Shown here: positions 18,332-27,555 of the stretch, one piece after another | Layout of the letters: each line of letters opens with the position of its first letter | Numbering within the stretch: the stretch's first letter is position 1 | Origin: Flavobacteriales bacterium | GTDB taxonomy: Bacteria; Bacteroidota; Bacteroidia; Palsa-965 | DNA length: 64,000 bases | Assembly (NCBI GenBank): GCA_040377305.1 | Contig: JBEIPA010000001.1 | Location: 128,001-192,000 of the forward strand | Reading direction: 5' to 3' | Notes under the pieces: generated by a model | What the model saw: the letters and a program-made list of their open reading frames with translations, nothing else | Told to the model about the DNA's origin: nothing | Databases searched by the model: none | Translations under genes and position numbers: made by a program

Positions 18332-18922
18332 ATGAAGGACATGGTACCCATAGCAACGACAATGGCCGCAGAGCAAAACAGGCTGCTTGAAGAAACAGTA
18401 CAGCGCGAAAGACGCCGTTTGCTCGAGTTCATACGAAAAAGAATTCCGCAGGAGGAAGATCCGGAAGACGTGCTTCAGGATGTATTCACTGAATTAACGG
18501 AAGCTTTCAGAATGGAACGGGTCATCGACCGTGTGTCGGGCTGGGTATATCGTGTTGCCAGAAACAAAATCGCAGATCTTTTCAGGAGACGGAGAACAGA
18601 GTCGTTGGAAGCACGATACGAAAAAGAATTTGGCGATGGAGAAGAAGGCTTAGGCTTAAACGACTTGTTGCCTGACCCGTCGGCAGGTCCGGAAGCTGAA
18701 TATGCACGCCGTGTTATTATGAGTGAGTTGATGCTTGCACTTGATGAATTACCGGAAGAACAGCGTTGGGTTTTCTGGGAAAATGAAATCGAAGAACGTC
18801 CTTTCCGTGAGCTCGCGGAAGAGGCTGGAGTGTCGCTCAACACATTACTTTCAAGAAAACGATATGCTGTTTTGTTTCTACGAGAACGTTTGCGCGGTCT
18901 GTATGAAGAGCTCGGCAACTAA
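18332..18922 (+). CDS. ECF sigma-70 factor
   Basis: EDVLQDVF, WVYRVARNKIAD, LPEEQRWVF, NTLLSRKRYA. Confidence 0.92.
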   Translation: MKDMVPIATTMAAEQNRLLEETVQRERRRLLEFIRKRIPQEEDPEDVLQDVFTELTEAFRMERVIDRVSGWVYRVARNKIADLFRRRRTESLEARYEKEFGDGEEGLGLNDLLPDPSAGPEAEYARRVIMSELMLALDELPEEQRWVFWENEIEERPFRELAEEAGVSLNTLLSRKRYAVLFLRERLRGLYEELGN

Positions 18923-19079: not shown

Positions 19080-19472
19080 ATGAAATGGTTTTTGAGATGT
19101 ATAGCAGCCGTAGTGGGATTCGCTGCACTCGCATTCGCGCTCGCGTGGATAACGATGTTGCTCTGGAACTGGTTGGTTCCTGGACTGTTCGGCGGTCCTG
19201 AAATCAGGTACCTCGAAGCTGCAGGATTAATGATTCTCGGTAGACTGCTCGTGGGTGGATTCAAAAGTGGAGGTGGGCATTGCGGTCACGGTGGTAAATG
19301 GGGACATGGCGGACACGGTTACTGGAAACGTCGCTGGGAAGACAAGATGGCGAACATGACTCCGGAAGAAAAGGAGAAGTTCAAAATGGGAATGAACAAG
19401 TGCGGTGGTTGGGGACGTTGGAATGATTGTGAAACTGAGACGCCGAAGGCGGAGACGAACAATACGCAATAG
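19080..19472 (+). CDS. Small membrane protein downstream of the ECF sigma factor
   Basis: Two TM segments, LWNWLVPGLFG motif, Gly/His-rich tract, MTPEEKEKF. Confidence 0.8.
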   Translation: MKWFLRCIAAVVGFAALAFALAWITMLLWNWLVPGLFGGPEIRYLEAAGLMILGRLLVGGFKSGGGHCGHGGKWGHGGHGYWKRRWEDKMANMTPEEKEKFKMGMNKCGGWGRWNDCETETPKAETNNTQ

Positions 19473-19587
19473 TCAATACGCAATGCGCAGTCACTAATCT
19501 GAGACTGGAATTAAAAGAAAAAGGTTCGAGAGTCAAATCTTCGAACCTTTTTCTTTTTGCGCTTTGGCTATTGCGTATTGCTCATTG
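19460..19587. repeat. Heptamer tandem / inverted-arm element (CAATACG family) enclosing a terminator
   Basis: caatacg-caatagt-caatacg-caatgcg ... cgctttg-gctattg-cgtattg-ctcattg. Confidence 0.75.
19513..19558. terminator. Bidirectional intrinsic terminator
   Basis: aaaagaaaaaggttcga...tcgaacctttttctttt between convergent genes. Confidence 0.8.
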
Positions 19588-21076
19588 GATCGCGCTTGCG
19601 CGAAAGTGCAAACATCACAAAAGCCAACGTTATCAACGATACAAAAAACGTAAGCATGCTGCTGTTTGCTTCCGATGTTTGTTCAGGTTCAAAATCCCCG
19701 AACGGAATGATGCTTCCCTGTTTCGAGCTCTGGTGTTTTTTGTCGAGATACTGATCGAACTCTTTCGGATAATCGTAATGCGTGGTGATATCGCGACCAG
19801 TGAGCCACTGATACGTGTATAATTCATTCCAACGACGCTTACCCAGTTCCACCAGATACTCTTGTCCTTTTTCGCAGGTGTAATCCGTACTGTACGGCGG
19901 GTTCGTGAGAATATATCGTCCCTGGAATCGCACCTTATTTGCAGTTTCCTGAAATAACAAATCCTGTGGAAAATGTTCGCGATCATACGTGAGGTGCAGA
20001 CGTGTGAAGTACACGAAGCCTTCGTACGTTTTAGCTTGCGTGTGATAGTCCGTGCTTTTTAGTTCAAGCCAATCTACACCCGCATCTTTCAGATCAGTTA
20101 CAACAGGTGGATCACCAACGCACGGATCACAGAATTGATTTTGCGTTGGAGAAACATCCCAACCGTATTCGAGGAAAACGGTATTCTTTCCCTCGCGACT
20201 CCATGCTTTGTTGTAGAGATCACGATAAAATTCACCGAACTCGTTGCGAACAAACAGCGGCACTTTAAAGTCGGTTGGAATAAGCGAAGTGCGATAGTTT
20301 GTTGTTTCGATGCGTCCAACTTTGGAGTACATGTACACAACAAGATCCTGTACGCCGTTTGCGTTTGCCATTCCCAGGCGAATCGGCAACATGAATTTTG
20401 GTGAGGTGTATGTAATCTGTAGTGGCTTCAATGGCACAGCTCCAGCCGCGGTGTAATTTTCGAGATTCACTTTCGCCACGAAAAACTTCATGTTCGTTTT
20501 GATGTACGGATCGAGAACTTCTTTTGCACCGACCGGCATTTTATAACCGTTGTCAATGAGCCATTCTTCTAATCCACCAGATTCAAGTGCAGAAAGAATA
20601 AGAATATCATATTCACCAACGGTGTATTTCGCTTCCACGGTTACGCCGTAGGATTTTTCCTCCATCGGTGCCGCATTTCCATCGCTGTAACCATAAGCTG
20701 CAGATCTGGTTTTCTTAGCCCCGTAGTGTGGTTTGTATTTCGGAGGAGTGTAACATGGATTCTGATCGTAGTACTCCACCAGACGTGGTGAAGAATACAA
20801 ATCAAGTTTATCGAACAACGCGCGCTCTGCAACTTTGATATCGCCTTCCTGCAATACCACCGGAACCGGAACGACCATTGCAAAATCCTTCACGTCGCCT
20901 TCAAAATCACTCGACATGGTTACGGTTTGCTTATCACCATTCTTCGCAATGATAACCTGCGATGTTTTGTTGAATAGTTTGATGTCTGCTTTTGCAACAT
21001 AAAATCCGCAGAAGCTGTAGCCGATGTTGCTTGTGAACACTATAGCTGCGAGAGTGAGGATGAGCGTCTTTTTCAT
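19568..21076 (-). CDS. DUF2330 domain protein, copy 4 (most divergent)
   Basis: Signal peptide, FCGFYVAKAD, DFAMVVPVP, FMLPIRLG, CDPC, FTRLH, FQGRY, C-terminal TM plus basic tail. Confidence 0.85.
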   Translation of the reverse strand: MKKTLILTLAAIVFTSNIGYSFCGFYVAKADIKLFNKTSQVIIAKNGDKQTVTMSSDFEGDVKDFAMVVPVPVVLQEGDIKVAERALFDKLDLYSSPRLVEYYDQNPCYTPPKYKPHYGAKKTRSAAYGYSDGNAAPMEEKSYGVTVEAKYTVGEYDILILSALESGGLEEWLIDNGYKMPVGAKEVLDPYIKTNMKFFVAKVNLENYTAAGAVPLKPLQITYTSPKFMLPIRLGMANANGVQDLVVYMYSKVGRIETTNYRTSLIPTDFKVPLFVRNEFGEFYRDLYNKAWSREGKNTVFLEYGWDVSPTQNQFCDPCVGDPPVVTDLKDAGVDWLELKSTDYHTQAKTYEGFVYFTRLHLTYDREHFPQDLLFQETANKVRFQGRYILTNPPYSTDYTCEKGQEYLVELGKRRWNELYTYQWLTGRDITTHYDYPKEFDQYLDKKHQSSKQGSIIPFGDFEPEQTSEANSSMLTFFVSLITLAFVMFALSRKRDPMSNTQ

Positions 21077-21091
21077 TCGGCGGTCGGGTTT

Positions 21092-21178
21092 ATGATATGA
21101 TGATAGAATGATCGGATGATAGGATAGGTCGAGTCAAATATTCACTACACTCTATCATTCAATCATCCCACAATCTTA
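21092..21178. repeat. Octamer tandem / inverted-arm hairpin (ATGATNGR), upstream of DUF2330 copy 4
   Basis: atgataga-atgatcgg-atgatagg ... ctctatcattcaatcatccc. Confidence 0.8.
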
Positions 21179-22681
21179 TCACTGATTCGGTACTGTTTCT
21201 TTTAGCTTGCGCTTACGCGAAAGAGCAAACATCACTCCTGCAAATGCAAGTACTGAAGTGAAAAATGTAATCATATTGCTTTCCGATTTCGTGGCATGCT
21301 CGGGTGTGAAGTTCTCCAAATCAACCAAGGCTCCCTGTTTCTTCGGAGCGCCGCCGGTTAGAAACTGATCGTATTCTTTCGGATAATCTGCATGCGATGT
21401 GATATCGCGACCCGTGAGCCACTGATAGGTGTACAATTCATTCCAGCGACGTTTCCCGAGATCCTTGATGTAAGTCTGTCCTTCTGCACACGACAAATCT
21501 CCGCTGGCCGGATGCGTGATGATGTAGCGGCCCTGAAACTTTTCTTTGTTCGCCGTTTCCTGAAACAACAAATCCTGCGGAAAGTGCGCACGATCATATT
21601 TCAAATGCATGCGCGTGAAGAAAACATTACCTGCATACGTTCTTGCTTGTGTGTGGTAGTCCTGAGTTGCCAGTGTAAGCCAATCTACTCCTGCTTCTTT
21701 CAGATCAGTTACCATTGGAGGATCGCCCACACACGGATCACAAAACTGGGTTTGATTCGGAGAAACTTCCCACGCGTATTCGAGGAACACGGTGTTCTTT
21801 CCTTCGCGTGTCCAGGCTTTGTCGTAGAGATCCCGATAAAATTCGCCGAATTCATTCTGCACAAACAGTGGTACTTTGAAATCGGTTGGAATGAGTGAAG
21901 TGCGATAATTGGTTGTTTCGATTCTTCCGATTTTCGAATACATGTAAATCACGAGATCCTGTACACCATTTGCGTTTGCCATCCCCAGTCGGATTGGCAA
22001 CATAAATTTTGGCGATGTGTAAGTAATTTGAAGCGGATCGAGATCAACCGAACCTTTATTGGCGAACTTCTCGAGATTCACTTTACACACAAAAAACTTC
22101 ATGTTCGTTTTGATGTACGGATCCAAAACTTCTTTTGCACCAACAGGCATTTTGTAACCGTTGGCGTTGAGCCACGTTTCAAGTCCTCCCGATTCTTTCG
22201 CCGACAAAATCAAAATGTCATACGTTCCGATCTGGTACTGCGCTTCAACCGTAACTCCGAGCGTATCTGCAGCATAACCAAAGTTCATCATCGGTGCTGC
22301 ATCGAAAGAAACTTCACTCAGAAGTACTCCTTCATTGTAATACTCAGGTTCCACGTAACAGGGAGTCTGATCGTAATAAGAAACCAATCGTGGAGATGAA
22401 TAATCTTCCAGTTTTCCGAAGATGCTTTGATTCACCGTTCGGATATCTTTCTCCTCCAGCACAACCGGAACTGGAACGACCATGGCAAAGTCTTTCACCT
22501 CTCCTTCAAAATCACTCGACATCGTAACGGTTTGCTTGTCGCCATTCTTTGCTATAATTACCTGTGAAGTCTTGTTGAACAATTTCACATCAGCTTTCGC
22601 CACGTAAAATCCGCAGAAACTGTAGCCTATGTTGCTGGTGAACACTATGGCAGCTAGAGTAAGTATGAGTACTTTCTTCAT
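21179..22681 (-). CDS. DUF2330 domain protein, copy 3
   Basis: Same motifs as the other copies. Confidence 0.85.
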   Translation of the reverse strand: MKKVLILTLAAIVFTSNIGYSFCGFYVAKADVKLFNKTSQVIIAKNGDKQTVTMSSDFEGEVKDFAMVVPVPVVLEEKDIRTVNQSIFGKLEDYSSPRLVSYYDQTPCYVEPEYYNEGVLLSEVSFDAAPMMNFGYAADTLGVTVEAQYQIGTYDILILSAKESGGLETWLNANGYKMPVGAKEVLDPYIKTNMKFFVCKVNLEKFANKGSVDLDPLQITYTSPKFMLPIRLGMANANGVQDLVIYMYSKIGRIETTNYRTSLIPTDFKVPLFVQNEFGEFYRDLYDKAWTREGKNTVFLEYAWEVSPNQTQFCDPCVGDPPMVTDLKEAGVDWLTLATQDYHTQARTYAGNVFFTRMHLKYDRAHFPQDLLFQETANKEKFQGRYIITHPASGDLSCAEGQTYIKDLGKRRWNELYTYQWLTGRDITSHADYPKEYDQFLTGGAPKKQGALVDLENFTPEHATKSESNMITFFTSVLAFAGVMFALSRKRKLKETVPNQ

Positions 22682-22692
22682 GACGTAAGTTT

Positions 22693-22780
22693 ATGATAGG
22701 ATGATAGAATGATCGGATGATTGGATAGGTCGGGTGATCGTACTAACTCCATCCTATCATTCAATCATCTGATAATCCCA
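22693..22780. repeat. Octamer tandem / inverted-arm hairpin (ATGATNGR), upstream of DUF2330 copy 3
   Basis: atgatagg-atgataga-atgatcgg-atgattgg ... atcctatcattcaatcatct. Confidence 0.8.
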
Positions 22781-24283
22781 TCATGAATTCGGCACTGTTT
22801 GTTCCTTTGATTTCCGCTTACGCGATAAAGCAAACATTACTCCGGCAAACGCAAGAACAGAAGTAAAGAAACTAATCATGTTGCTTTCCGATTTCGTTGC
22901 ATGTTCCGGTATGAATTCCTCAGGTGTCAAGAATGAACCTTGTTTCTTCGCCGCACCACCCGTTAAATACCGATCGAACTCCTTCGGATAATCGTAATGC
23001 GCAGTAATATCGCGACCAGTTAGCCACTGATAGGTATAGAGTTCATTCCAACGGCGCTTTCCAAGATCCTTGATATACGTTTGCCCTTCTGCACAAGAAA
23101 GATCTCCGCTTGCCGGATAGGTGATAATGTAACGACCCTGAAACTTTTCCTTGTTCGCTGTTTCCTGGAATAACAAATCCTGCGGGAAGTGTGCGCGATC
23201 ATACGTGAGGTGCAAACGCGTGAAGAACACATTACCTGCGTATGTTCTCGCTTGCGTGTGGTAATCCTGAGTCGCCAGTGTAAGCCAATCTACTCCGGCT
23301 TCTTTCAGATCAGTTACCATCGGTGGATCACCAACGCACGGATCGCAGAACTGTGTTTGATTCGGAGAAACTTCCCATGCGTATTCGAGAAACACGGTGT
23401 TCTTTCCTTCCCGTCCCCAAGCTTTATTGTAGAGATCGCGATAGAACACACCGAACTCATCTTTCGCAAACAGAGGCACTTTGAAATCGGTTGGGATTAA
23501 CGAGGTGCGATAATTAGTCGTCTCGATGCGACCGATCTTTGAATACATGTAGATGATCAAATCCTGAACCCCATTGGCATTCGCCATTCCAAGTCGGATC
23601 GGCAACATGAATTTCGGCGACGTGTAAGTAATTTGAAGTGGATCGAGATCAACAGAACCTTTGTTCGCAAATTTTTCAAGATTCACTTTGCAAACAAAGA
23701 ACTTCATATTGGTCTTGATGTACGGATCGAGAACTTCCTTAGCACCAACCGGCATTTTGTATCCGTTGTCGTTGAGCCACGTTTCGAGTCCGCCCGATTC
23801 CTTTGCTGACAAGATGAGAATATCGTACGTGCCGATTTGGTATTGAGCTTCAATAGTTACACCTAAACTTTGAGTTGTAGTCACATTCGCGACACTCATT
23901 CTCATCATTTCCGGAGCTGCAGCAACCATATCGTAATCGTAATCGTCCCGCTCAACGTAACAAGGTGTTTGATCGTAATACGATACCAATCGTGGAGCGG
24001 AATAATCTTCCAGTTTTCCGAAGATGCTTTGATTCACTGTGCGAATATCTTTCTCTTCAAGAACTACAGGCACGGGAACAACCATCGCGAAATCTTTTAC
24101 TTCGCCTTCGAAGTCGCTCGACATGGTTACTGTTTGCTTATCGCCATTCTTCGCGATAATCACCTGAGACGTTTTGTTGAAGAGCTTTACATCCGATTTC
24201 GCAACGTAGAAACCACAGAAGCTGTAGCCCATATTGCTGGTGAATAGGATAGCGGCGAGGGTGACGATAAGTATTTTTTTCAT
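22781..24283 (-). CDS. DUF2330 domain protein, copy 2
   Basis: Same motifs as the other copies. Confidence 0.85.
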   Translation of the reverse strand: MKKILIVTLAAILFTSNMGYSFCGFYVAKSDVKLFNKTSQVIIAKNGDKQTVTMSSDFEGEVKDFAMVVPVPVVLEEKDIRTVNQSIFGKLEDYSAPRLVSYYDQTPCYVERDDYDYDMVAAAPEMMRMSVANVTTTQSLGVTIEAQYQIGTYDILILSAKESGGLETWLNDNGYKMPVGAKEVLDPYIKTNMKFFVCKVNLEKFANKGSVDLDPLQITYTSPKFMLPIRLGMANANGVQDLIIYMYSKIGRIETTNYRTSLIPTDFKVPLFAKDEFGVFYRDLYNKAWGREGKNTVFLEYAWEVSPNQTQFCDPCVGDPPMVTDLKEAGVDWLTLATQDYHTQARTYAGNVFFTRLHLTYDRAHFPQDLLFQETANKEKFQGRYIITYPASGDLSCAEGQTYIKDLGKRRWNELYTYQWLTGRDITAHYDYPKEFDRYLTGGAAKKQGSFLTPEEFIPEHATKSESNMISFFTSVLAFAGVMFALSRKRKSKEQTVPNS

Positions 24284-24297
24284 GACACTGTAAGTTG

Positions 24298-24385
24298 ATG
24301 ATGGAATGATAGAATTATTGGATGATAGGATGGAACGAAGAACAACATAAACTACATCCTATCATTTAATCATCTGAGCATCCTA
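24298..24385. repeat. Octamer tandem / inverted-arm hairpin (ATGATNGR), upstream of DUF2330 copy 2
   Basis: atgatgga-atgataga-attattgg-atgatagg ... atcctatcatttaatcatct. Confidence 0.8.
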
Positions 24386-25894
24386 TCATGTTTGTGAGGT
24401 AGTTTGAGACTTTGCCTTCCGTTTTCGCGATAACGCAAACATCACTCCTGCAAATGCAAGTACAGAAGTGAAGAACGTGATCATATTGCCTTCAGACTTT
24501 GTTGCGTGTTCCGGCACGAAAGACTCGATTGACATGAACGAACCTTGTTTGGTTTTTCCACCGGTTGATTTGATGTGCTGATCATATTCCTTCGGATAGT
24601 CGTAGTGCGCAGTAATGTCGCGACCGGTAAGCCACTGATACGTGTAAAGCTCGTTCCAACGGCGCTTACCAAGCTCCTTCACATAAGTCTGTCCCTTTTC
24701 GCACGAGAAATCTCCGCTTGCCGGATGAGTAATGATGTAACGACCCTGAAATTTTTCTTTGTTCGCTGTTTCCTGGAACAACAAATCCTGCGGGAAGTGC
24801 GCGCGATCATACGTAAGATGCATACGTGTAAAGAACACATTGCCTGCGTACGTTCTCGCTTGTGTATGATAATCCTGGCTCGCAAGTTCAAGCCAATCAA
24901 CGCCAGCTTCTTTCAGGTCAGTTACCATTGGAGGATCGCCAACGCACGGATCACAAAACTGCGTTTGATTCGGAGAAACTTCCCACGCATACTCGAGGAA
25001 TACGGTATTCTTTCCTTCGCGGCCCCAAGCTTTGTTGTACAGGTCGCGGTAGAATTCGCCAAACTCATTCTGAACAAACAACGGAACTTTAAAATCGGTT
25101 GGAATCAAAGACGTGCGATAGTTTGTTGTTTCGATACGACCGATCTTCGAATACATGTAAATGATCAAATCCTGAACTCCATTCGCATTTGCCATTCCGA
25201 GTCGAATCGGCAACATGAACTTCGGTGATGCATACGTAATCTGAAGTGGATCGAGATCAACGGAACCTTTGTTTGCGAATTTTTCCAGATTCACTTTACA
25301 CACGAAGAATTTCATGTTCGTTTTGATGTACGGATCGAGCACTTCTTTAGCGCCCACCGGCATTTTGTATCCGTTGTCGTTGAGCCACATCTCTAATCCG
25401 CCCGATTCTTTCGCTGATAAAATCAGGATGTCATAAGTTCCAATTTGGTATTGCGCTTCTACAGTTACCTGGTAGTCGTCAGCCAACTCCTTGCTTACGC
25501 TTTTCATTTCCATTCTGTCGATAGACGCTCCCGCAGCCATAGGATAGTTGTAATACTCCGGTTCTACGTAACAGGGGTTCTCATCGTAATAAGAAACGAG
25601 TCGCGGGGCTGAGTAGTCATCAAGTTTGGCGAAGATGCTCGCTTGCACAGTTCGTATGTCTTTCTCTTCGAGAACTACCGGAACAGGAACGACCATTGCA
25701 AAATCCTTCACGTCGCCCTCGAAGTCGCTCGACATGGTAACGGTTTGCTTCTCGCCATTCTTCGCGATAATAACCTGCGATGATTTATTGAAAAGTTTCA
25801 CGTCTGCTTTTGCAACATAAAATCCGCAGAAGCTATAGCCCATGTTGCTGGTGAACACAATGGCTGCGAGAGTGAGTATCAGTACTTTTTTCAT
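24386..25894 (-). CDS. DUF2330 domain protein, copy 1 (first transcribed)
   Basis: Same motifs as the other copies. Confidence 0.85.
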   Translation of the reverse strand: MKKVLILTLAAIVFTSNMGYSFCGFYVAKADVKLFNKSSQVIIAKNGEKQTVTMSSDFEGDVKDFAMVVPVPVVLEEKDIRTVQASIFAKLDDYSAPRLVSYYDENPCYVEPEYYNYPMAAGASIDRMEMKSVSKELADDYQVTVEAQYQIGTYDILILSAKESGGLEMWLNDNGYKMPVGAKEVLDPYIKTNMKFFVCKVNLEKFANKGSVDLDPLQITYASPKFMLPIRLGMANANGVQDLIIYMYSKIGRIETTNYRTSLIPTDFKVPLFVQNEFGEFYRDLYNKAWGREGKNTVFLEYAWEVSPNQTQFCDPCVGDPPMVTDLKEAGVDWLELASQDYHTQARTYAGNVFFTRMHLTYDRAHFPQDLLFQETANKEKFQGRYIITHPASGDFSCEKGQTYVKELGKRRWNELYTYQWLTGRDITAHYDYPKEYDQHIKSTGGKTKQGSFMSIESFVPEHATKSEGNMITFFTSVLAFAGVMFALSRKRKAKSQTTSQT

Positions 25895-25908
25895 GACCCT
25901 TTAGTTTT

Positions 25909-25992
25909 ATGATCGAATGATTCAATGATTTGATGATCGGATTGGATACGGTACAACAGAAACTCCATCCTATCAATCTATAATCATATCAT
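25909..25992. repeat. Octamer tandem / inverted-arm hairpin (more degenerate), upstream of DUF2330 copy 1
   Basis: atgatcga-atgattca-atgatttg-atgatcgg ... atcctatcaatctataatcat. Confidence 0.7.
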
Positions 25993-26015
25993 GCTAATTA
26001 TTCGTGGTATTGAGT

Positions 26016-26879
26016 TTATTTAGACCAGGAGAATTTATCTCCTTTGAAAATTTTATCGAGCACAGGAACGAGTGGTGACAAGAAGAACAATGCCCACACT
26101 GGAGGCGCAGAATACACCCACCATTTCGTTGCCATGTAGTATGCCAGAATGCCAACTCCAACAGCCCATATCAATCGTGCTTTTTGTGAAGCAGGAGTCT
26201 GAACCGGATCAGTGATCATGAAGAAGGTGAAGAGCAGCAACGAACCGTTCGTTAATTGATGCGTAAAGAAATCCATCGGCCAACCGAGGTAAAGAATGTT
26301 GCGCGCAAACATTAACCCGAGGAACGTAAGCAAGAATGCAAACGCTGTATCGAGACGTTTAACGCGCAACAGCACAACCAAACCTGTAAGGCCTACAACA
26401 AACAACAACAAACCGTCACTTCCCCACTGTCCAGGAGAAATCCATGAGTCACCTGTAAGCAGGACTGTTACACAGATTCCAAAGTTTGTTGGATTGAAAA
26501 TATGTTTGCCATTATATTTTAAAAAGAACTTGCTTCCGATGGAGAGCACTGCACACAACACGAATGTCCACACACTGTTTGCCTGCATCATCAAACAGAT
26601 ACTCATTGCACTTACGAGTGCACTCTTGAGTCCTGTCCAATCTTTCGTCTTGAACTGTATCCAAAGTGCCTGCACTGCGAGACAAGAAAGAATCACGATG
26701 TTCACCCGCATGATTGGGATCGTCCAATCCAACACGAAAATCCCGTACAACAGGAAAGACAGTTGGAACAGAATCTGATAATGGCGGGCATCACTTCGAA
26801 ACCATTCGAGAACGTTAGTTACGGGCTTAATCGCCGTTTTTAGGGCGTTTTGGGCGACGGGTAGAGATTGAGTTTCCAT
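26016..26879 (-). CDS. Orphan NqrB/RnfD-family integral membrane protein
   Basis: About 9-10 TM helices; GKHIFNPTNFG and FFMITDP motifs; no other rnf/nqr genes in the window; likely start METQS at 26879. Confidence 0.8.
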   Translation of the reverse strand: METQSLPVAQNALKTAIKPVTNVLEWFRSDARHYQILFQLSFLLYGIFVLDWTIPIMRVNIVILSCLAVQALWIQFKTKDWTGLKSALVSAMSICLMMQANSVWTFVLCAVLSIGSKFFLKYNGKHIFNPTNFGICVTVLLTGDSWISPGQWGSDGLLLFVVGLTGLVVLLRVKRLDTAFAFLLTFLGLMFARNILYLGWPMDFFTHQLTNGSLLLFTFFMITDPVQTPASQKARLIWAVGVGILAYYMATKWWVYSAPPVWALFFLSPLVPVLDKIFKGDKFSWSK

Positions 26880-26945: not shown

Positions 26946-27088
26946 AGATGGGAGTCGGGAGATGGGAGACGGGAGTGAAAAGCTGCAGGGCCAACGCGAT
27001 TGCATTGGAATCATTGATTTCCAAATTCATGGCGAATAATTAGATGCCGGATATGCGTCTTCCTACTCCCGTCTCCGATCTCCTAACT
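26946..27088. repeat. Heptamer tandem / inverted-arm element (AGACGGG family)
   Basis: agatggg-agtcggg-agatggg-agacggg-agt ... act-cccgtct-ccgatct-cctaact. Confidence 0.8.
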
Positions 27089-27555
27089 CAATACTCGTCT
27101 GCTTTCAACACTTTCTTCACCCGTGAGCCTTCTTCATTGAAGCACTGCACATAATACACGCCGACCGGAAACCCGCGGAAGTCAACCTGGAAAAGCTGAT
27201 GCGTGTTTACGAAAAATCCATAGCTGTAGTATTCTTTTCCGAAGCGATCAAACACTTTTACGTAAACCACTCCCGGAACCTTTACCCAGATGTCCATTGT
27301 AATTAAATCGACTGGGGGATTCGGTGTGTACCAGAAATCTATCGGATCGCAAATGGTGTTGGAGTTCCAGTATGTTAATCCTGCATTGTTCGAAAAGCAA
27401 TCATTCTGATAGGTGAATCCATCGCAACCACAAACCGGTTCGTAGCGCGGATCACAATAACCCCCGTATACAACTTGTGTAGAGTCGTAACACCCTTGCG
27501 CTTTCGCAAAATGACATACGACAATCAACAATACCGCAAAAGTCCAACGGATCAT
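27088..27555 (-). CDS. Kazal-type protease inhibitor domain protein with T9SS-like C-terminal domain
   Basis: C...YEPVCGCDGFTYQNDC Kazal motif; TPNP...GVYYV...KKVLK CTD pattern. Confidence 0.8.
   Translation of the reverse strand: MIRWTFAVLLIVVCHFAKAQGCYDSTQVVYGGYCDPRYEPVCGCDGFTYQNDCFSNNAGLTYWNSNTICDPIDFWYTPNPPVDLITMDIWVKVPGVVYVKVFDRFGKEYYSYGFFVNTHQLFQVDFRGFPVGVYYVQCFNEEGSRVKKVLKADEY

Follow-up and report, generated by a model that had tools for sequence, protein, structure and literature searches.

A tandem array of DUF2330 proteins with hypervariable loops and a predicted P35-like fold in a Flavobacteriales bacterium

The DUF2330 array and its variable loops

The stretch of DNA analyzed here (the window; 64,000 nucleotides, positions 128,001 to 192,000 of contig JBEIPA010000001.1 of the Flavobacteriales assembly GCA_040377305.1) carries four tandem minus-strand genes encoding proteins of 500 to 502 amino acids (aa), every one of which is a member of DUF2330 (PF10092; E values of 4e-70 to 2e-67; Table 1). 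The four copies score 228 to 237 bits against a cut-off of 24.7, match no other Pfam family at E values up to 0.01, and are the only PF10092 matches in the genome. No NCBIfam model matched the two copies scanned, and no paper naming DUF2330 or PF10092 was found in the literature outside subscription papers and supplements. The contigs of a possible source sequencing run match the window, and no loop variants were seen in them.

At the level of sequence, the array consists of four near-identical cores with different loops, and every copy carries, besides its signal peptide and C-terminal anchor, five conserved cysteines. In copy 1, a signal peptide (aa 1 to 21) precedes a mature protein that starts with Phe-Cys-Gly and continues through a beta-sandwich domain, predicted to resemble that of the baculovirus protein P35, and a helical extension to a hydrophobic anchor with basic end residues; the signal and the anchor were assigned by reading the sequence. 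The signal cleavage site is of the A-x-A type: among 80 parsed representatives, 78 have Ala or Ser at −1, 61 have Ala at −3, and 74 have Phe at +1. The core of copy 4 clusters with those of three further basic-loop copies on other contigs (quick tree, SH-aLRT 96), and basic loops account for five changes on that tree.

The first-pass annotation had described a hypervariable loop between a conserved PCY and VT(V/I)EA in each copy. This was borne out: its sequences were as quoted, its coordinates agree with ours to within 1 to 4 nucleotides, and the entropy contrast is beyond chance. With bounds set from PC to VT(V/I)EA and the first Tyr counted, the loops are 33 to 36 aa long. Across the six copy pairs the cores are 80 to 96% identical, while the loops share 7 to 13 of 34 to 36 residues. 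For the 109 full-length sequences of 120 homologues listed, the mean column entropy was 2.98 bits in the loop and 0.55 to 0.72 in the core, while the other disordered region, the C-terminal linker, gave 2.43. The copies had also been said to differ in loop length, which in fact hardly varies, being 32 to 36 aa in 102 of 102 parsed close homologues; in 127 of the 136 rows of a wide alignment the median is 33 aa and the range 16 to 45. The loop is a family feature, variable in sequence and nearly fixed in length.

The 102 close loops are rich in Met, Ala, Tyr, and Ser and poor in Leu, Phe, Ile, and Trp, Met being enriched 3.1-fold and Ala 2.3-fold, and no Asp motif is conserved among them. Structure prediction, proposed earlier as a check on disorder, agreed with a disordered loop (predicted local distance difference test [pLDDT] below 50 at mature residues 96 to 119). 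In a composition scan of the proteome, neither the loops nor the bait stretches of the genome's own alpha-2-macroglobulins stand out. The motif AAP, offered earlier as a protease signal, does occur in copies 2, 3, and 4 and was rejected as such a signal, being found in 7 of 102 close and 20 of 103 distant loops. Some distant DUF2330 proteins (P0206, P0207, P0235, P0257, and P0261) have Gly-rich rather than Met/Ala-rich loops. At the C-terminus of many distant members, a motif containing Cys is followed by a hydrophobic stretch and by Arg residues, which together we take to be the MYXO-CTERM sorting signal, and two members carry a TonB C-terminal domain.

Table 1. Coordinates of the array, its loops and cysteine motifs, and neighboring features in the window
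Feature	Position	Strand	Remarks
DUF2330 copy 1	24386..25894	-	502 aa; open reading frame list, Pfam
DUF2330 copy 2	22781..24283	-	500 aa; open reading frame list, Pfam
DUF2330 copy 3	21179..22681	-	500 aa; open reading frame list, Pfam
DUF2330 copy 4	19568..21076	-	502 aa; most diverged of the four
Copy 1 loop	25469..25570	-	34 aa, acidic, Met/Tyr-rich; predicted disordered; candidate reactive-site (bait) loop
Copy 2 loop	23861..23959	-	33 aa, acidic then Met/Thr-rich; 76% identity to loop of orthologue P0007
Copy 3 loop	22256..22357	-	34 aa, no Lys or Arg, hydrophobic and acidic
Copy 4 loop	20645..20752	-	36 aa, six Lys/Arg; 64% identity to loop of orthologue P0033
Cys2 codon, mature copy 1	25826..25828	-	Candidate counterpart of P35 Cys2
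Cys2 codons, other copies	24215-24217, 22613-22615, 21008-21010	-	
CxxC motif (CDPC), copy 1	24944..24955	-	Found in all four copies
Imperfect hairpin of ~100 nucleotides ahead of each copy	25895-26015, 24284-24385, 22682-22780, 21077-21178	-	ATGAT/ATCAT-rich
RnfD/NqrB-like membrane protein (PF03116)	26016..26879	-	Open frame reaches 27014
Kazal-like protein with type IX secretion system (T9SS) C-terminal domain	27088..27555	-	PF00050, 23.6 bits vs cut-off of 21

Predicted fold and conserved cysteines

Among 48,161 solved chains, P35 was the closest to the predicted DUF2330 fold, with 216 to 223 aligned residues, compared with 140 to 176 for other beta-sandwiches (the N-terminal sandwiches of ITIH/VIT proteins and M1 aminopeptidases, Legionella lpg2210, and ribophorin I/Ost1). 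The predicted structure has the fold of P35, and the structure comparison places the hypervariable loop at approximately the P35 cleavage region. When the fragment after the loop was searched alone, an exhaustive search listed P35 weakly, and a Foldseek-based search did not have P35 among the matches listed. Sequence searches of the PDB with DUF2330 gave no match, and the P35 family PF02331 was not matched by the DUF2330 copies in Pfam at E values up to 0.01; no PF02331 match was found in the genome at E values up to 10, a search in which the control gave no match either. The ESM Atlas returned only unnamed clusters, under 0.9.

P35 is cut by a caspase at Asp87 of a reactive-site loop, which is flexible, to form a thioester whose hydrolysis is blocked by the repositioned N-terminal Cys2; its initiator Met is removed, and P35 relatives with different loop sequences show different inhibition profiles (PMC7863939, PMC3252740, PMC3375223). 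Wild-type P35 also inhibits gingipain K (PMC4138498). The models predict for DUF2330 a P35-like fold in which a disordered loop sits at approximately the site where P35 is cleaved and residue 2 of the mature protein is a Cys. Compared with baculovirus P35/P49 (MEROPS I50, PF02331; PDB 1P35, 1I4E), DUF2330 has, by prediction, the closest fold, N-termini in register, a Cys at or beside position 2, and a candidate flexible loop at approximately the cleavage region that varies from relative to relative. The two differ in other respects: DUF2330 proteins are bacterial, exported, and membrane anchored, whereas P35/P49 are viral and cytosolic; there is no detectable sequence similarity; the DUF2330 loop is approximately 32 residues longer and has no conserved Asp (caspase P1) site; and DUF2330 has a Phe before Cys2, a CxxC pair, further Cys residues, a helical C-terminal extension, tandem arrays, and an RnfD-like partner, its inhibitory activity being putative. 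Given the lack of a PF02331 sequence match and of a conserved caspase site, we do not file DUF2330 as a P35 member; it appears to be built like P35 and likely works like it.

In 2011, a cellular P35 homologue had not yet been described (PMC3252740), and no cellular or bacterial homologue reported since was found in the literature outside subscription papers and supplements. On the viral side, two BFVD proteins, A0A8F8PN05 (Clandestinovirus) and A0A6N1NI77 (Tupanvirus), match the DUF2330 model (E values of 2.8e-7 and 3.1e-4). They may be P35-like proteins of giant viruses, forming a bridge between bacteria and insect viruses. No viral DUF2330 was found in IMG/VR with two patterns.

The five conserved cysteines (mature numbering) are present in the 136-row wide alignment in 123 (Cys2), 134 (Cys87), 117 (Cys293), 118 (Cys296), and 125 (Cys377) rows. 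Cys293 and Cys296, the CxxC pair, are lost together in homologues, the motif being gone in approximately 10 of 136 rows, and Cys87 and Cys377 are retained where Cys2 is lost. From this pattern we infer that Cys2 is unpaired. It lies at mature position 2, in register with the P35 N-terminus, but is preceded by Phe in 74 of the 80 parsed representatives.

A CxxC pair and three further conserved Cys would also suit an envelope redox or assembly protein built on an old P35-like sandwich, in which the cysteines work with an RnfD-like or cytochrome partner and the loop is an uncut, variable binding or recognition surface. Partners of redox type do occur in two lineages, non-inhibitors share the sandwich, and the Met and Ala enrichment of the loop could serve oxidant scavenging. 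This reading leaves unexplained the approximately 50 extra residues that P35 aligns over other sandwiches, the coincidence of both the N-terminal Cys and the loop with P35 functional positions, and the different loops on near-identical cores within one genome, and the CxxC pair is not universal. We regard it as unlikely.

The earlier comparison of the loop with a protease bait region held in part. The predicted disorder, P35 as the closest match to the predicted fold, and the approximate position of the loop agree with it, while the two models proposed, alpha-2-macroglobulin and the serpins, do not fit. Alpha-2-macroglobulin was rejected, as no copy has a CxEQ thioester motif or a Pfam domain of that family; its bait region (PF00207 family) shares with DUF2330 the concept of a disordered variable stretch presented to proteases, but DUF2330 is about a quarter of its size. 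The genome separately encodes two alpha-2-macroglobulins of approximately 1,900 to 2,100 aa with CxEQ motifs (G000 C46:31459 and C45:51581; L201, L202). Serpin identity by sequence was likewise rejected (no serpin profile match at E values up to 0.01), and no serpin or alpha-2-macroglobulin chain is among the best 50 structure matches listed. Serpin clusters such as SERPINB3/B4 resemble the array in being tandem duplicates whose cores are conserved and whose reactive loops have diverged; unlike these, DUF2330 is a predicted beta-sandwich, and positive selection, demonstrated in serpins (PMC4136820), is not demonstrated in DUF2330 loops.

Evolution of the loop

Loop evolution was followed in 42 genes of relatives. 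Orthologues of sister species keep the loop (33/34 and 34/34 residues for G010/G014; 32/35 for G004/G006, where synonymous sites are saturated), with proportions of nonsynonymous differences (pN) of 0.012 to 0.058 against 0.30 to 0.91 for synonymous ones (pS). Strict neutrality of the loop was rejected in three orthologue comparisons (p values of 5e-8, 3e-13, and 0.003). As to the earlier question of whether the loop evolves like a neutral linker, the C-terminal linker is under similar purifying selection in close orthologue pairs, and the loop result rules out strict neutrality but no more than that. Single-copy orthologues of another clade (G008, G012, G019, and G023) share 14 to 20 of 31 to 34 loop residues with cores that are 90 to 95% identical; set beside the conservation in sister species, this indicates an uneven rate of loop change. 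One of these genomes, G012, is unpublished and underlies three of the single-copy pairs and one of the 15 relatives' loci.

Within genomes, loop identity does not exceed 38% in any of 32 pairs from 14 genomes (33 pairs less one duplicate entry, G125 = L089), even at core identities of 98.7% and 96.6%. Loop identities between 43% and 99% are absent among pairs within a locus (32 genome pairs and 31 metagenome pairs). In the seven paralogue pairs with cores at least 92% identical, 71 of 221 loop residues and 160 of 214 linker residues are identical, compared with 255/370 and 271/334 in 11 between-genome pairs, the pairs in these counts not being independent. The paralogue loops are far more diverged than the linker control in six of the seven pairs. 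For 8 of 42 array members, the nearest core comes from the member's own contig; the nearest loop never does. Contigs were assigned here by equality of length, and clustering at 90% hides near-identical copies. The 13 myxobacterial-type metagenome arrays gave 28 of 31 pairs with loops at most 42% identical; the other three have identical loops and DNA that is 98 to 100% alike, which indicates that arrays grow by whole-gene duplication.

In genome G020, synonymous differences number 5 of 58 in codons 1 to 60, 13 of 29 just before the loop, and 0 of 29 just after it, a pattern that suggests gene conversion skipping the loop. The four copies of the window show no fresh conversion tract of this kind; the core synonymous divergence (dS) among copies 1 to 3 is approximately 1.7, with synonymous sites near saturation. 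A possible natural exchange was seen in P0052 (and P0046): P0052 joins a copy-1 type signal peptide, N-terminal part, and loop (34/34 residues) to a copy-2 type C-terminal part, with distal core matches of 100/100 and 97/97, and reflects either an unequal crossover that swapped the loop or a chimeric assembly.

The age of the copies alone permits much loop change, and the array could hold an ordinary, loosely constrained spacer, being kept for dosage or for differences elsewhere. The similar selection on the linker and the indistinct loop composition agree with such a spacer, and divergence by itself can yield an apparent exclusion from gene conversion. Counting methods, used for the test of positive selection that the first-pass annotation had proposed, did not demonstrate it: there was no case in which loop nonsynonymous divergence (dN) exceeds loop dS, the loop synonymous sites being mostly saturated or poorly aligned. 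A mere spacer is nevertheless improbable: it fits poorly with the rejection of strict neutrality, the tight loop length, paralogue loops far beyond the linker control, the empty interval of within-locus identities, and a position that matches the P35 reactive site.

Neighboring genes and a proposed protease trap

Directly upstream of the array lies an RnfD/NqrB-like gene, the sole PF03116 match of the genome. Unlike RnfD/NqrB subunits, its product stands alone. It matches RnfD of PDB 8AHX (E value of 3e-13) and is shorter by approximately 69 residues of a central extramembrane stretch, between two aligned anchors; we take the missing stretch to be the site of the threonine that binds flavin mononucleotide (FMN) covalently. 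Of 15 relatives' loci, 14 have the gene directly upstream and the remaining one has it fused. Among 79 GTDB loci, which are the best of approximately 610 confirmed stretches and nearly all from Bacteroidota, 75 contain it, 61 as a separate gene of the locus and 14 as a fusion. Cultured organisms that carry the pair include Crocinitomix algicola and Ferruginibacter sp. SUN106. The fusions place the RnfD-like part in front of DUF2330 (L044:7984-10422 and 14 of the 79 loci L056-L134), mostly in records titled Chitinophagaceae, Chitinophagales, or their genera, and were also seen in 10 of 46 long representatives scanned. Among 66 myxobacterial-type metagenome loci, many on short contigs, no RnfD-like gene was found. 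In six of these (L136:2915-5035 and five others of L135-L200), a multiheme cytochrome c plus tetratricopeptide repeat (TPR) protein adjoins DUF2330, and no RnfD-like gene was seen.

Going by record titles, the relatives of the window's DUF2330 are Bacteroidota. One to five DUF2330 matches occur in 20 of 24 same-genus genomes, but of 200 further genomes sampled from the phylum, only 3 have the family; among 50%-identity representatives, 4,470 clusters match at E values up to 0.001. In 14 to 17 of the 79 loci (e.g., L079, L081, L095, and L108), the pair has next to it, on the opposite strand, a gene for an extracytoplasmic function (ECF) sigma factor together with two or three small genes. In the window, the genes that converge on the array are one for an ECF sigma factor (18332-18922) and one for a small membrane protein (19080-19472), an arrangement kept across the genus.

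The Kazal inhibitor gene that the earlier note placed just upstream is on the same strand, but the RnfD-like gene lies between, and as support for a bait function it did not hold up. In 12 of 15 relatives' loci it falls inside the region retrieved, consistent with genus-level synteny, and its motif occurs in 2 of the 79 wider loci, both close kin. The second residue after Cys II, presumably the P1 position by Kazal spacing, is Pro both in the window's protein and in 13 of 13 motifs from relatives. The gene was rejected as a member and probably lies outside the DUF2330 system.

The hairpins ahead of the copies fold at −18 to −29 kcal/mol as RNA, values that carry no shuffle control. A profile of the four gave 62 genome matches, mostly both strands of one place (approximately 30 places), and no match in those loci of relatives that were searched. 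The hairpin looks like a lineage-specific dispersed palindromic repeat of the repetitive extragenic palindromic (REP) type, copied together with the gene. A promoter and terminator scan gave results at chance level.

We place just short of an even chance on each DUF2330 copy being an exported, membrane-anchored suicide-substrate protease trap that uses the hypervariable loop as bait and acts in the manner of baculovirus P35. That the loop is a protease bait, for a trap or a tripwire, is somewhat more likely than not. The steps of cleavage, release, Cys2 action, and tethering are modeled on P35. A foreign protease, most likely a cysteine protease because P35 holds a thioester, would cut the loop, upon which the N-terminal segment would be released. 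Cys2, or the new conformation, would then halt hydrolysis of the acyl-enzyme, and the protease would thereby stay tethered at the envelope. With acidic, basic, and hydrophobic loops in one array, a wider range of proteases would be caught, and, more speculatively, the RnfD-like partner might keep Cys2 reduced via the CxxC pair.

Three observations weigh against the trap. The main difficulty is the Phe ahead of Cys2, since the P35 Cys is the free N-terminus; thiol-thioester exchange is still possible, and the chemistry need not match that of P35. The linker is constrained much as the loop is, and the partner of the reduction step was not seen beside the myxobacterial-type copies, many of them on short contigs.

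The same fold, register, and loop evidence would also fit a tripwire, in which a cut loop relays a change of shape to the RnfD-like membrane protein (as ion or electron flux or a stress signal) and the protease is not lastingly inhibited. The adjacency or fusion of the two genes agrees with this, the partner could sit where the RnfD-like protein lacks its central stretch, and the Phe is unlike P35 chemistry. The 66 myxobacterial-type loci, many on short contigs, speak otherwise, having arrays of distinct loops and no RnfD-like gene found; the window has a single RnfD-like gene for four copies, and P35-like chemistry explains the conservation of Cys2 more simply. We judge the tripwire distinctly improbable.

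A broader version of the trap would make DUF2330 the missing cellular family that gave rise to baculovirus P35 and a widespread bacterial envelope defense. Its arrays of suicide inhibitors resembling P35 would vary in nothing but the reactive-site loop, would be kept ready by a pared-down RnfD subunit, and would trap the proteases of predators or competitors. This we consider somewhat unlikely. On the strength of the predicted structure, DUF2330 is a directly testable candidate for the cellular relatives of P35. The four copies offer a ready experiment, four natural loops on near-identical scaffolds. If true, the trap would give DUF2330 its first mechanism and add a new kind of bacterial envelope protease trap beside alpha-2-macroglobulin, serpins, and ecotin, and thousands of bacterial clusters with a P35 fold would make the origin of P35 testable.

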